Below are positions 52,821 to 61,494 of a stretch of DNA of 64,000 bases, piece after piece. A model generated the notes under the pieces. The model was not told the DNA's origin, did no database searches, and worked only from the letters and a program-made list of their open reading frames with translations. The DNA is from Lentisphaerota bacterium (GTDB taxonomy: Bacteria; Verrucomicrobiota; Kiritimatiellia; UBA8416; VGWJ01), in the NCBI GenBank assembly GCA_016873635.1, contig VGWJ01000011.1:678-64677 (forward strand), written 5' to 3'. A program made the translations under genes and the position numbers. Numbering within the stretch: position 1 is the stretch's first letter; each line of letters starts with the position of its first letter.

Positions 52821-52912
52821 GCCCCGCCCTACCCGCCGCCTTCGGCACACAACGGCAGGGCGCGGGCGCCCTCCTTCGCGCCATGCGCTTCGGAGGGCAA
52901 GCCGCGCGCGCC
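52821..52912. repeat. GTAG-type REP pair with nested 33-bp element (52871-52903)
   Basis: ...CCCGCCCTACC / GGCAGGGCGCGGGCGCC-[33 bp]-GCGCGCGCC. Confidence 0.8.
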
Positions 52913-52929
52913 TCTCTTTCCTCGGCAGG

Positions 52930-54078
52930 CTACCCCGCCGGTCCGAGCCGCGCTTTGAAATCCTCGTAGCCGAACTCGCGCACGACCCGAAGCTCGCCCT
53001 TCCCGGGGCTCCACACGGCCAGCGACGGAAGCCGCACCCCGTTGAAGGTGTTGTTCTTCACCACGGTGTAGTGCGCCATGTCCATGAAGACCAGCCGCGC
53101 ACCGACCTCGAGCGGTTCCCGGAAGGAATACTCCCCGATGACGTCGCCCGCCAGACAAGTCACGCCCGCCAGCTCGTAGGTGTGGGCGAACTCGCCGGGC
53201 GCGCCCGCGCCGGCCACCGCCGGCCGATAGGGCATCTCCAGCACGTCGGGCATGTGCGCGGCGGCGGAGGTGTCGAGGATGGCGATGGACTTCTCGTTCC
53301 GCACGATGTCCAGCACGCGCGCCACCAGCACCCCCGCGTTGAGCGCCACCGCCTCGCCCGGCTCCAGGTAGACCGTGACGCCGTGCCGCGCGCGGAAATC
53401 CGCCACGATCCGGCAGAGACGGTCCACGTCGTAGTCCTCGCGCGTGATGAGATGCCCGCCCCCGAAATTCACCCACGCCATGCGCGACAGGAATTCGCCG
53501 AACCGGCTCTCGAACGCGGCCAGAACGCGCTCCAAGGCGTCGGCGTTCAGCTCGCACAACGCGTGGAAGTGCAGTCCGTCGATGCCGTCGAGGCCGCGCG
53601 CGTCGAACGCCGCGCGCGTAACCCCCAGGCGCGAGCCCGGACGGCAGGGGTCGTAGGCCGCGGTGCGCACCTCGGAGTGCTCGGGGTTGACGCGAATGCC
53701 GCAAGCCACCGGGCGGCCGGCCTCCGCCACGCGCGGCTTGAAGCGGCGCCACTGCGCGAACGAGTTGAACACGATGTGGTCGGCGCGCGCCAGCAGCTCC
53801 GGAAATTCGTCATCGGCGTAGGCCGGCGCGCAGACATGCACTTCGCCGCCGAACTCCTCCGCCGCCAGCCGGGTTTCGTGCAGCGAGCTCGCCGTCGCCC
53901 CCGCCAGGTAGCGCCGCGCCAGCGGAAACACGGGGAAGAACGCGAACCCCTTGAGCGCGAGCAGGATCCGGCAGCCGGCGCGCTCCTGGACGTCCGCCAG
54001 GCGCCGCAGGTTGCGCTCCAGCGCCGCTTCGTCCAGAACGTAGCACGGCGTGGGCACCTGACGCCAGTCCGGGTTCAC
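52930..54078 (-). CDS. nspC: Carboxynorspermidine decarboxylase
   Basis: TPCYVLDE, LLALKGF, YDPC...SRLG, GLHFHALCE, HMPDVLEMPYRP, CLAGD, NTFNG. Confidence 0.93.
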   Translation of the reverse strand: MNPDWRQVPTPCYVLDEAALERNLRRLADVQERAGCRILLALKGFAFFPVFPLARRYLAGATASSLHETRLAAEEFGGEVHVCAPAYADDEFPELLARADHIVFNSFAQWRRFKPRVAEAGRPVACGIRVNPEHSEVRTAAYDPCRPGSRLGVTRAAFDARGLDGIDGLHFHALCELNADALERVLAAFESRFGEFLSRMAWVNFGGGHLITREDYDVDRLCRIVADFRARHGVTVYLEPGEAVALNAGVLVARVLDIVRNEKSIAILDTSAAAHMPDVLEMPYRPAVAGAGAPGEFAHTYELAGVTCLAGDVIGEYSFREPLEVGARLVFMDMAHYTVVKNNTFNGVRLPSLAVWSPGKGELRVVREFGYEDFKARLGPAG

Positions 54079-60000: not shown

Positions 60001-60208
60001 GGGCGTCAACCGCGCGCGCCGCAAGGGTATACAGAAAACGATAGGCGGTCCCCTGGTAGAAGAGCCCGGTATGCGCCGCGATCTGGTAGGCGGAAAGACC
60101 CGGATACGCCCCCGGACAAAGCGTCGCCGCATAGGCCGCCAGCGCAACAAGACCCAGCAGCGCGCCGATGATCAGGTCAGGCCGCTTGTTGGTATCCGAA
60201 GCGATCAT
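57038..60208 (-). CDS. DUF2723 (TMEM260-like GT-C) multi-TM protein with TPR array
   Basis: YAATLCPG, ARLNVFSALCGA, SIPFW; about 11 TM; C-terminal TPRs (LNNLAW, WDTLG). Confidence 0.75.
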   Translation of the reverse strand: MIASDTNKRPDLIIGALLGLVALAAYAATLCPGAYPGLSAYQIAAHTGLFYQGTAYRFLYTLAARAVDALPFGGLAARLNVFSALCGAASVVFLYGLVSGTVRRVARLDDPQRPRAALAGRIAGVGAGLYLAFSIPFWIASNRAGVAAFDTLLLLAVTAIFYRYVSGGPGWLAPVFGLACGIGVTESATLIVFAPLFGPALLFAMWRRGEATPARIIALVVSTLAGLCLYLVAAWDFHGSPGYVAREYTGFFKVVWFIWREEYLLITRGLPRVGWLVVLFVGVVPGLVAALVARRALNDERDLTYYALHVLLTAIAVLVLLNHRMAPWAMLGEERFLVTPYVLGAALFGYLLAYWLFLPGTWWPDPERRSARRLSRHLGWVFVAPALALACLAAFRNLARADARPGGVADAYARRILDRSAGVEWIVSDGALDMHLLILARDRGRAPRLVNVGAGNSELYMNYLRMQLADEPDLRSAASVSMVALLRRWFDTKPDVDRSVAVIWPADLWMAAGCSMLPEGVVFLGTRRPEDVDADALMGRNAAIWDELVPALRRASAEGSPIAKLASFLLTRLSLGANNLGVFMEDIGRKDEAYAAYARAREINPENVSALLNLNGMLNGGYQPADADKIREATRDFVADLKGKYRVWALSRHDGYVRMAQAYADLGMTWALSGRPGLAVSGIRKAMELAPEAGRNRLAQTLAEMYLRMGETVRSGDMYREMLAANPKDGEALLGLYRVRTLEGNIEAARELLEQAEKAGISKTRVSLEYALLHLRSGDLDQARIVLQELVDLQPRMTEAWELLTDVIALQRDADGLAEAIEKMEKGGGSDRVIYFARARLSALQGDLVAALDNAERALRIFPRDPRVLEFLMQAAMALGRYDDATQHARVMLEIAPANGMGNYVLGSAYLLKNEFVLAEQFLRRALAVRETAEVLNNLAWIVQERGDCAEGEELVRRALALDANTPGAWDTLGVVLMKLGRPDEAEEAMERAVGQSQDELPAMLHLAEVRVRLGKLDGAADLLDVLERRRRELPQREQDRLDDVRRMYRRARERQ

Positions 60209-60318
60209 CTGGTGTCCCATATAGCGAAGCGGGGATGGCTTGACAACGGTATTCGTTGGCGGACAACAGAATCGTCTTGGCGAGCCTGGCGTCTTGGCGA
60301 GAGAATCACCAAACGTCG

Positions 60319-61494
60319 ATGAGTTCACGCGCCATTCGTCTGCAGAAGTATCTCGCCGAGCGCGGCGTGGCATCGCGCCGGGCCTGTGAAGCCCTCATGG
60401 CGGCCGGCCGCGTAACCGTGAACGGAGAAGTCGTCACGCGGCCCGGCACGCGCGTGGATCCGGATCGCGACGCGGTAACGGTTGACGGCACGCCCCTGGC
60501 GGCCGCGCCGAAACGGCGCACGATCATGCTTTACAAGCCGCGCGGCTACATCTGCAGCGCATCGGCGAAACAAGGGCGGACGGTGTATGAGCTGCTGCCG
60601 GAGGGTCTGCATCCTACCCGCAATCTGGCGAGCAGGCAGTCGTCCCCGGGCGGCCCGCGACCGACCCATGGTGGCCCGCGACCGACCCATGGTGGCCCGC
60701 GACCGACCCATGGTGGCCCGCGACCTCCGGGCGCGGGCGGCCAAGAAGCAGCGCCTGAATTGCCTTTGCCCGCGCCCGGAGGTCGCGGGCCACCCGATGC
60801 CGCGCGGCCGCGAGAAGGGCTCGTTCCCATAGGAAGGCTGGACAAGGACAGCGAAGGGCTGCTGCTGATGTCCAATGACGGCGAGCTGGTGCACCGCCTG
60901 AGTCATCCGCGGTTTGAGCATGCGAAGACGTATCGCGTCACGGTTAGTGCGCTCCCGGGCGGTAGGGCGGGGCCGCCGGACCCGCCGGAAACGGAACAGT
61001 CTCGCGGCCCGGATTCGGCGCGGCCCGCCTTCGCCGGGAAGCTTCGGCGGGGCAAGCCGGAGGCCCTGCCCTACCCGTCTTCCACACCCAGCACAGGTAG
61101 GGCGCGGGCGCCCTCCTTCGCGCGAAGCGCTTCGGAGGGCAAGCCGCACGCGCCTGTTTCGGGGCGCCCGCGCCCCACCGGCGAAGACGTTGATACGGCC
61201 CGCGGCGTGGTCACCGACGAGATGCTGCAGCGCCTCCGGCAGCCGTTCGTTCTCGACGGCTATCGAACGCGACCGACCGACGTGCGGGTGATTGGGCCGG
61301 GCCTCGTGCTCGAATTCGTCCTCAAAGAGGGCCGCAAGCGTCAAATCCGGCGCATGTGTGAACATGTCGGCCTGCGCGTGGAGCGGCTGATGCGTGTCGG
61401 CGTCGGTCCGTTGGAACTGGGAAATCTGTGTCCAGGCCGGTGGCGTGAGTTGTCGTCGAGGGAGGTAGAGCAACTCACGGAGAGCCGGGGCTGA
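60319..61494 (+). CDS. RsuA/RluB-family pseudouridine synthase with two in-frame repeat insertions
   Basis: S4 domain RLQKYLAERGVASRR, KPRGY, GRLDKDSEGLLL, EGRKRQIRRM. Confidence 0.9.
   Translation: MSSRAIRLQKYLAERGVASRRACEALMAAGRVTVNGEVVTRPGTRVDPDRDAVTVDGTPLAAAPKRRTIMLYKPRGYICSASAKQGRTVYELLPEGLHPTRNLASRQSSPGGPRPTHGGPRPTHGGPRPTHGGPRPPGAGGQEAAPELPLPAPGGRGPPDAARPREGLVPIGRLDKDSEGLLLMSNDGELVHRLSHPRFEHAKTYRVTVSALPGGRAGPPDPPETEQSRGPDSARPAFAGKLRRGKPEALPYPSSTPSTGRARAPSFARSASEGKPHAPVSGRPRPTGEDVDTARGVVTDEMLQRLRQPFVLDGYRTRPTDVRVIGPGLVLEFVLKEGRKRQIRRMCEHVGLRVERLMRVGVGPLELGNLCPGRWRELSSREVEQLTESRG
60649..60794. repeat. 21-bp tandem x3 plus 27-bp perfect inverted repeat (GTGG-type REP doublet)
   Basis: GG(C/T)GGCCCGCGACCGACCCAT x3; 60712-60738 is the exact reverse complement of 60768-60794. 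Confidence 0.9.
60961..61179. repeat. Two GTAG REP doublets, each with a nested 33-bp element (61026-61058, 61113-61145)
   Basis: GGTAGGGC...GCCCTACC and GGTAGGGCGCGGGCGCC...GGCGCCCGCGCCCCACC. Confidence 0.85.

Follow-up and report, generated by a model that had tools for sequence, protein, structure and literature searches.

This locus of a lake bacterium raises the question whether a 33-nt hairpin unit lodged within several GTAG-type REPs is a component of these REPs or a repeat of its own, and how it came to lie in them. In the window, i.e. the whole 64-kb stretch of DNA that was analysed, four such units are present, each within the hairpin of a GTAG-type REP: copy 1 at 52871..52903, copy 2 at 55335..55367, copy 3 at 61026..61058, and copy 4 at 61113..61145 (all features are on the forward strand). 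The first-pass annotation had reported the four units, their consensus, and their location within REP hairpins, and all of this was confirmed. A strict consensus pattern found three of them, with no match in any of 100 shuffles, the copy that was missed differing in its top stem. A covariance model run over the whole window with filters off gave exactly four matches of 46-52 bits (49.6, 51.4, 46.1, and 51.6 bits for copies 1 to 4, respectively), the next best candidate scoring 15.4 bits.

Three of the window copies are oriented forward with respect to the REP head and one, copy 3, is reversed. Copy 1 lies between convergent genes within a REP at 52854-52912, which has a degenerate head (GGCAGGG) and the arms 52854-52870 and 52904-52912; the filled REP is predicted to form a nested hairpin (-22.6 kcal/mol, z -2.5). 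Copy 2 is intergenic, with a REP arm on one side (55318-55334) and, on the other, an arm that is REP-like and inverted (55368-55384). The host arms of copy 3 are located at 61017-61025 and 61059-61075, with CCCTACC downstream, and for this reversed orientation no stable nested fold was predicted (z 0.43). Copy 4 occupies a REP at 61096-61154 (arms 61096-61112 and 61146-61154), and a nested fold was again predicted for the filled form (-21.8 kcal/mol, z -2.4). Sequence comparison and folding identified an empty REP at 39523..39548 that shares its stem type with this last host; it had been described as the 61096 REP with the 33 nt removed, which holds except for two substitutions in the left part. 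A further empty REP (GGTAGGGCGGGGCC...GGACCCGCC) is found at 60961..60986 as part of an intragenic REP cluster. In contigs of three other lake samples (X5, X6, and X7), all four window copies are unchanged, and no 33-nt joint was listed in these assembled contigs, in which rare variants are hidden.

Copies 3 and 4 are not intergenic, both being located inside an intact reading frame for an rluB-type pseudouridine synthase (60256..61494, 412 codons) with S4 and PseudoU_synth_2 domains. This frame carries an in-frame insert of 255 nt or 85 codons (60949..61203) composed of four REP units, of which two are filled, and an alignment showed that the insert is absent from six homologues of about 240 amino acids. 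The proposal that the length of the unit preserves reading frames is not supported as a general rule, since the copies within a composite repeat of about 190 bp measure 34 nt; only 2 of 62 modules in the genome were demonstrated to be intragenic. REPs inside genes, including pseudouridine synthase genes, have been reported, as have the Rickettsia palindromic elements (RPE), small palindromic repeats that lie in frame within genes that are still open (Di Nocera, De Gregorio and Rocco 2013, PMC3733652); RPE differ from the module in being longer and in being confined to Rickettsia.

The unit is a discrete hairpin with covariation in its stem. The outer stem of the module comprises 5-7 bp, in which (G)CC-CNCC is paired with GGNG-GG(C), and is followed by a conserved 3x3 internal loop (TTC or GTC opposite TTC, TAC or TAT), a short variable stem-loop at the top, and an unpaired 3' tail, CAAGCC. 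Across 25 distinct copies, 92.8% of the cells are paired, compared with 33-58% in slid controls; changes on both sides occur at four of the pairs, and the covariation score was not reached by any of 500 shuffles. The GCC at the junctions had been interpreted as a target duplication, a view that is not tenable, as the homology at the junctions is anything between 1 and 5 nt long over the filled/empty pairs; the left CC or GCC belongs to the stem of the unit itself, where it pairs with GG or GGC inside the unit. Terminal inverted repeats and a target duplication of fixed length, which characterise MITEs, were not found, the sole inverted repeat being the hairpin stem. A comparison of the window with Rfam gave no match at the gathering score, and for 20 loci searched at E<=1 only tRNAs and chance microRNA hairpins were retrieved.

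A census of this genome was performed with nhmmer and subsequently with the covariance model, which gave 85 matches at E<=1 and 62 at E<0.01. An exact GTAGGG head is present upstream of 25 of these 62 modules, and degenerate or truncated heads were recognised by eye for 10 more. By visual placement of all 62, 37 reside in REP loops (35 forward and 2 reverse) and 25 elsewhere, the non-REP settings including other hairpins, tRNA 3' ends, and the regions upstream of small GIY-YIG genes. The REP hosts are GC-rich 9-bp hairpins with 3-nt loops. Among hairpins with a GTAG head and at most one mismatch between the arms, 28 had a short loop, 19 a long loop, and 13 a loop classified as 'mid'. Stem type GGCGGACCG is represented by 14 short-loop and 11 long-loop hairpins, GGCGCGGCG by 9 short and 13 filled ones (12 of which were classed as 'mid' owing to a match of the search within the module), GGCGGGGCC by 3 short and 3 long, and GGCGCGGGC by 3 short and 2 long ones, and each REP subtype pairs with its own module subtype.

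Filled and empty states are therefore both found for four REP stem types, and they also occur in one non-REP repeat family. In this composite repeat, hairpin 1 is filled and hairpin 2 empty on C40, C107, and C41; on C2, hairpin 1 lacks the module, which leaves a gap of exactly 33 nt, and hairpin 2 is filled in the opposite orientation. Another host is a perfect 16-bp palindrome, which carries a 27-nt module core at its apex (-36.4 kcal/mol, z -9.7). The initial view of the 33-mer as a repeat in its own right, and not a part of the REP, is supported: hairpins were entered on several separate occasions and in both orientations, and one and the same host is seen in exactly matching filled and empty form. 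Within REP loops, 35 copies are forward and 2 reverse. This bias and the restriction of each REP subtype to one module subtype indicate that most copies were multiplied along with the hairpins carrying them and do not stem from new insertions. The proposed specificity for GTAG REPs has to be abandoned, as 25 of the 62 copies lie outside REPs and none of 11 module examples examined in related genomes has REP flanks.

The module family is widely distributed across phyla. In 60 other genomes of the same order, all belonging to other families, the covariance model detected the module in 49 (E<=1e-3). A scan of a genome collection yielded at least 122 loci over many phyla, with Acidobacteriota, Alphaproteobacteria, and Patescibacteria among the taxa concerned; a likeness to repeats of Patescibacteria had previously been noted, and 8 of the 80 titled loci among the scan matches listed are indeed from this group. 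The sequence CCNCC[TG] was found upstream in 77 of the 122 loci among the matches listed, although the search pattern did not include it, and in 64 of these 77 the N pairs with its partner (48 G-C and 16 T-A). The unpaired bases of the module are likewise conserved across phyla.

Beside its solo copies, the module family is tied to a nuclease gene. The partner genes form one clade, encode single-domain GIY-YIG proteins of about 80 amino acids with the C-terminal motif YLKSGSGRAFA, and are located just after tRNA genes, with modules flanking them in three phyla. A first module starts at the tRNA 3' end, and a second, inverted one is positioned just before the nuclease start codon; it ends in GCGAAGGAGG, 5-7 nt before this codon and paired with CCTCC, and its GGAGG arm doubles as ribosome-binding site of the nuclease gene. 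The same order of tRNA, module, module, and gene is seen in an Acidobacteriota genome, and in a Sphingomonas genome the gene is flanked on both sides, the arrangement module, gene, and inverted module being placed between two tRNAs. The first-pass annotation had pointed to a nuclease or transposase gene flanked by 33-mers as something to look for, and nuclease genes with modules alongside do exist. This genome encodes two members of the clade, each after a tRNA and both on the minus strand (contig C3 91735-91986, 83 amino acids; contig C30 3305-3553, 82 amino acids). The covariance model has a match 72 nt upstream of one of them; for the other (C3), the upstream hairpins were identified solely by eye. 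When 30 GIY-YIG loci of relatives (84.8 kb) were searched, the model gave 16 matches at E<=1, and 10 of these precede small genes, 7 in number, at a distance of up to about 115 nt; only 7 of the 28 small GIY-YIG genes of relatives have such an upstream match (E<=1).

The small nucleases match PF01541 above the cut-off, and the nearest solved structures are those of UPF0213 and SLX1 nucleases (E 5e-5 to 1e-4). NCBIfam gave no family at or near the cut-off for the six of them that were compared: five, including all four of the YLKSGSGRAFA clade, were without a match and the sixth had only matches far below the threshold. No nuclease gene was detected by tblastn near solo modules, either in the 1.5-kb flanks of 12 loci (four queries, one in the wrong frame) or in the 150-nt flanks of the 122 loci among the matches listed.

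The closest published system is that of the Ssn nucleases, which are characterised by membership in CDD family cd10448 and by cutting single-stranded DNA beside the hairpin on one strand only, and their NTS/SRM hairpin repeats (Chenal et al. 2025, PMC11893778). The general pairing of a nuclease with a hairpin is already known, and among the literature searched only this article covers it. The two systems share a single-domain GIY-YIG protein of about 80-95 amino acids, a gene flanked by hairpin repeats of 20-50 nt that are also scattered through the genome, a repeat orientation set by unpaired conserved bases beside the stem, and the placement of the gene between inverted repeats, here seen in Sphingomonas. 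Compared with the SRM described there, the module has an additional outer stem, an internal loop of symmetric form, and the CAAGCC tail. The published SRM pattern fits none of the 62 modules and is not enriched in this genome (22 matches versus 18-36 in simulated sequence), and no SRM enrichment is listed for Kiritimatiella glycovorans in the supplement of the article (PMC11893778). Nesting in other repeats and lodging at tRNA ends, as observed here, are not described for Ssn/SRM in the accessible parts of that article. Outside subscription journals and bioRxiv supplements, the literature searches turned up no account of a hairpin of this kind, of modules nested in REPs, or of the nuclease clade.

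We consider it probable that the module family is a companion repeat of the YLKSGSGRAFA clade, distinct from the REPs, whose solo units entered hairpin loops and then multiplied with their hosts. The 33-mer would accordingly represent a family of hairpin repeats in solo form, and such solo modules would enter the loops of other hairpin-forming repeats as units of 33 nt (+/-1), 3' of C or CC. The hosts entered would comprise the four REP stem types, the 16-bp palindrome, and the two hairpins of the other composite repeat; after entry, most copies would multiply passively with these hosts, above all in a double-REP element of about 190 bp. For the insertion itself, we infer that the nuclease may work on hairpins in single-stranded DNA, like the Ssn nucleases, and there make the break that enables the module to be copied into the exposed loop. 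GIY-YIG nucleases cut DNA, and to our knowledge neither DNA joining nor covalent strand transfer is known for this class, so that the copying step would have to come from the host. The orientation bias and the paired subtypes also fit a few old events followed by co-amplification, or deletions from a long form. A further step, put forward tentatively and regarded by us as rather doubtful, is that the module is itself mobile, a tiny DNA unit that targets structure: assisted by an Ssn-like GIY-YIG nuclease, it would be excised or copied in single-stranded form and inserted 3' of CC wherever this word is exposed beside a stem.

The companion-repeat reading has to be weighed against several alternatives. 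Movement could occur without a dedicated enzyme if replication stalled at an extruded hairpin and the nascent strand switched template at C/CC microhomology and copied the module. The short and variable junction homology (1-5 nt), the fact that every host is a hairpin, and the lack of a preferred nested fold in reversed copies are in keeping with this, but template switching leaves unexplained the exact unit of 33 nt (+/-1) with its conserved internal loop and tail, the conservation of unpaired bases across phyla, and the link with one nuclease clade, and we regard it as unlikely.

The 33 nt could also be an alternative long loop of the REP family, both forms being spread by the REP machinery and the short ones arising by deletion between the direct repeats of 1-5 nt at the junctions. 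The hosts studied here resemble the GTAG-tagged REPs of Di Nocera et al. (2013, PMC3733652) in their GTAG heads, their short GC-rich hairpins, and their intragenic cases. That article describes REP families combining short loops with long ones that are self-complementary and reach 27 bp, and the pairing of subtypes and the common orientation of 35 of the 37 REP-lodged copies are what such an origin would leave. In contrast to those long loops, however, the 'long loop' observed here lives outside REPs and outside the lineage: it is found in unrelated hairpins, in reciprocal filled and empty states and both orientations, at tRNA ends, beside nuclease genes, in 49 of 60 related genomes with REP flanks in 0 of 11 examples, and across phyla, which makes this explanation quite improbable. 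The examples examined also suggest that the module may occur in genomes devoid of GTAG REPs.

That the hairpin is kept for a function in RNA, such as hiding a ribosome-binding site, ending transcription, or stabilising a transcript, with its spread being secondary, appears very unlikely. The inverted module ending in GCGAAGGAGG before the nuclease start codon, the covarying stems, and the copies directly after tRNA genes agree with such a role, but two copies are in a coding frame, most are in REPs of either gene orientation, no Rfam family matches, and covariation would be equally expected of a DNA hairpin recognised by a protein.

In IS200/IS605 elements, their miniature derivatives, and REP/REPIN-RAYT systems, hairpins are recognised in single strands, and insertion takes place beside a short word without a fixed duplication; the REP/REPIN-RAYT systems were reportedly treated by Bertels and Rainey in 2011. 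The module would resemble them in these respects, shares with them the many non-coding copies per enzyme gene, and differs in its enzyme class (GIY-YIG rather than HUH) and in being a single 33-nt hairpin; unlike in REP/RAYT systems, a RAYT gene flanked by these REPs did not turn up in this genome, which at 92% completeness might lack such a gene. The idea that the module is a minimal single-hairpin element of a HUH tyrosine transposase of the IS200/IS605 or RAYT type, cut behind CC at either end and inserted into single-stranded DNA 3' of CC, draws on the insertion 3' of a short C-rich word without fixed duplication, on the same word at the end of the unit, and on four Y1-transposase homologues (PF01797 matches) encoded in the genome, but was rejected as scarcely credible, since neither GTAG REP nor module occurs within 200 nt upstream or 300 nt downstream of these genes, the covariance model has no match at them, their flanks carry other inverted or tandem repeats, and the module has one hairpin rather than the two distinct subterminal hairpins of IS200/IS605-type or PATE-type elements.

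The multiplication of small hairpin repeats in bacterial genomes is still a largely unsolved problem, for which this genome offers a natural record with a fixed unit length, insertion points known to the base, and five host types in filled and empty form. Together with the two candidate nuclease genes, these features make the mechanism directly testable with oligonucleotides and protein. The pairing of nuclease and hairpin known from Ssn is extended to a kind of hairpin not captured by the published search pattern, and such hairpins can ride in another repeat family and end up in frame in a housekeeping gene. If the module is a structure-targeted mobile unit, one rule would explain its presence in REP loops, in other palindromes, and in the nuclease cassette at the encoded CCA end of tRNA genes, and it would represent a repeat-enzyme partnership parallel to REP/RAYT, with a different nuclease fold and in many phyla.

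The four 33-nt units described in the first-pass annotation (hereafter modules) are present at 52871-52903, 55335-55367, 61026-61058 and 61113-61145, as confirmed by inspection of the sequence. A strict pattern gave three matches in the window versus none in all of 100 shuffles, and a covariance model run without filters recovered exactly the four modules at 46-52 bits, the next best match scoring 15.4 bits. Three of them lie forward in GTAG-headed hairpin repeats (REPs) of the form GG(T/C)AGGGCGCGGGCGCC / G(C/G)(A/G)CGCGCC. The module at 61026 is opposite in orientation to its host REP, the head of which follows downstream as CCCTACC, and the host at 61096 has an empty counterpart in the REP at 39523, which differs from it by two substitutions; the reversal and the empty counterpart were already described in the first-pass annotation. 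Two copies are located within a rluB-type gene and the other two are intergenic.

The window covers positions 678-64677 of contig C11 in a draft genome of 3.24 Mb (145 contigs, 67.9% G+C), which protein homologues assign to Kiritimatiellae-like bacteria. In this source genome, the model yielded at least 85 matches at E<=1, 62 of them at E<0.01; this census scored 150 of about 11,300 first-look candidates, and the copies from which the model was built, all from this genome, match by construction. An exact GTAGGG head no more than 34 nt upstream is found for 25 of the 62 modules, a head that is degenerate or cut by a contig end (as judged by eye) for a further 10, and two modules, at 61026 and on contig C47, are reversed in the REP. 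Since 25 of the 62 lie outside REPs, the specificity for GTAG REPs originally proposed was not borne out. Most forward modules are parts of a composite palindromic element, some 190 bp long and with terminal inverted repeats of GGTCAGTTA type, composed of two inverted GTAG REPs with a module in each (C6:12150-12330, C15:33750-33940, C50:13440-13650 and at least nine more), and most copies have therefore spread with their host. Contig ends coincide with several of these composites, of which twelve copies were aligned; in one copy (contig C24), the right-hand REP is empty.

Filled and empty states were both found for four REP stem types by a search for hairpins that took the REP head as anchor, namely GGCGGACCG (14 short-loop, 11 long-loop), GGCGCGGCG (9 short, 13 filled), GGCGGGGCC (3 short, 3 long) and GGCGCGGGC (3 short, 2 long), counts which are crude in that rare arms match by chance in long GC-rich windows. 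Twelve of the 13 filled GGCGCGGCG REPs were scored as intermediate ("mid"), as the search for the arm ended within the module. Each stem type has its specific module subtype. The clearest filled/empty case is outside REPs, in a second palindromic composite with two hairpins and the core ...CTCCAGAATCAT...ATGATTGAGAGCCTGGAGGGACGG... (C40:9170-9350, C107:5700-5880, C41:3780-3960, C2:30580-30770). On C40, C107 and C41, hairpin 1 contains a module and hairpin 2 is empty; on C2, hairpin 1 lacks the module (an alignment gap of exactly 33 columns) and hairpin 2 is filled in opposite orientation. On contig C8, the apex of a perfect 16-bp palindrome holds a 27-nt core without the tail. The insert measures 33 nt (34 nt in copies of the 190-bp composite), is always preceded by C, usually by CC, and shows a junction homology of 1-5 nt between left flank and unit end (C, CC, GCC, CCCG, GCCCG). 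Discrete units have entered hairpin loops repeatedly, 3' of C or CC, and the notion of one repeat lodged in another through several separate events holds.

An alignment of 26 copies from differing contexts revealed a common architecture: an outer stem in which CCNCC pairs with GGNGG, often lengthened by an adjoining C or GC, a 3x3 internal loop, a 3-4 bp top stem capped by a loop of 3-4 nt, and an unpaired tail (G)CAAGCC. The unpaired bases are conserved as well. Pairing on this structure reached 92.8% of cells, compared with only 33-58% in a control with the partners slid by 1-3 columns; both partners vary at four pairs (outer stem, G-C/U-A; top stem, C-G/G-C/U-A/U-G), and the observed covariation score was reached in none of 500 shuffles. 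DNA folding predicts, for forward filled REPs, a single uninterrupted nested hairpin with a bulge of five bases (-21.8 and -22.6 kcal/mol; z about -2.4), and the reversed copy at 61026 gave no such structure. Module pairing and nested folding assign the left GCC, formerly taken as part of a duplication, to the module's own stem, so that there is no true target duplication. No Rfam family matched the module, either in the window at the gathering score or in 20 loci at E<=1, where the hits were limited to tRNAs and chance microRNA hairpins.

The rluB-type reading frame (60256-61494) encodes S4 and PseudoU_synth_2 domains. All 120 homologues among the matches listed, its own protein aside, comprise 227-308 aa, and alignment with six homologues showed two in-frame inserts. 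The first (60604-60807; 68 residues without counterpart in these six) includes a 21-nt tandem repeat in 3.5 perfect copies (60652-60725), which encodes GGPRPTH; the second (60949-61203; 85 residues) is made up of four REP units, two with a module. As the C-terminal domain is still in frame, the inserts retained are those with a length divisible by three; the intact frame is weak evidence of function, because open frames are cheap in GC-rich DNA. At 60684-61017, contigs from three lake samples reach a summed depth about 3-5 times that of neighbouring bins, as expected if repeats from elsewhere also align.

Among 60 genomes of the same order but other families, 49 contained a module match at E<=1e-3, six of them more than 20. 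None of 11 examples inspected from these relatives is surrounded by a GTAG REP, and several lie within runs of GGAGGTC-like short repeats. A scan of the genome collection, with a pattern spanning only the 3' two-thirds of the unit, gave at least 122 loci, the matches listed including Acidobacteriota, Alphaproteobacteria, Patescibacteria (8 of 80 titled loci), Verrucomicrobiota, Planctomycetota, Bacteroidota and others. CCNCC[TG], which is not part of the pattern, immediately precedes it in 77 of the 122 loci listed, with N paired to its partner in 64 of these 77, and a top stem of three or more pairs is present in 98 of the 122; some of the others are fortuitous matches within genes. Runs of short tandem repeats of about 5-8 bases often flank modules in other phyla and in the relatives, the repeat unit differing per genome (loci L047, L088, L093, L098, L121, L153, L158, L162 and L032-L040).

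The draft genome encodes four Y1-transposase (PF01797) homologues (C4:14222-14551, C1:63475-63804, C2:87233-87562, C49:22405-22647) in open frames some 330-355 aa long. Two of them have inverted repeats of their own (20-25 bp) on either side, and short tandem repeats flank two (C49 on both sides, C1 upstream). No GTAG REPs occur within 200 nt upstream and 300 nt downstream of the four, and no RAYT (Y1 transposase) was found for the host REPs among them.

The module is linked to a clade of small GIY-YIG nucleases with the C-terminal motif YLKSGSGRAFA. Two of the four small GIY-YIG genes of the source genome belong to this clade (80-84 aa), and both come after a tRNA gene; one has an inverted module 72 nt upstream (model match), the other two tandem, more divergent hairpins of module design, recognized by eye only. 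Across 30 GIY-YIG loci (84.8 kb) taken from relatives, 10 of 16 model matches at E<=1 lie within about 115 nt upstream of seven small genes, every one of this clade. The usual order is tRNA 3' end, forward module (beginning at this end or two bases within), spacer, inverted module (with GCGAAGG(A/C)GG at its end, a few nucleotides upstream of the ATG) and nuclease gene. Clade and layout were found again in a Vicinamibacterales genome, and a Sphingomonas genome has the gene enclosed by a forward and an inverted module, this set being flanked in turn by two tRNA genes. Solo modules rarely have a nuclease gene nearby. The nearest solved structures to the small GIY-YIG proteins are UPF0213 and SLX1 nucleases. 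Small GIY-YIG genes also occur in head-to-tail tandem arrays (L199-L210; L166; L177), with ten copies at 418-bp spacing on a Saprospiraceae chromosome (L199-L210, G062:C1:25530-29523), three tandem copies in a related genome and a duplicated cassette in a further one (L166 and G002:C17:828-1734; L177).

Small GIY-YIG proteins of the Ssn type (cd10448) have been shown to bind a hairpin repeat in single-stranded DNA and to cut next to it on one strand only; their repeats (SRM) flank the gene and fill some genomes, and a likeness to insertion sequences was noted (Chenal et al. 2025, PMC11893778). The present system appears alike on the points visible in sequence, but the published SRM search pattern fits none of the 62 modules, and the table in that study gives no enrichment in Kiritimatiella. 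By analogy, the nuclease may nick exposed single-stranded hairpin DNA, and the module would be copied into the break by host repair or replication. Template switching at stalled hairpins, with no enzyme involved, carries real weight as an alternative. Long self-complementary loops as variants within REP families, and REPs located in genes, have already been reported (Di Nocera et al. 2013, PMC3733652), so that on its face the window holds a known kind of thing. The non-REP hosts and the wide distribution make it less likely that the modules are merely variants of REP loops. The original observation is confirmed and its interpretation partly supported. What the analysis adds is that the long loop stands as a unit in its own right, linked to a nuclease clade and repeatedly found nested in other hairpins.
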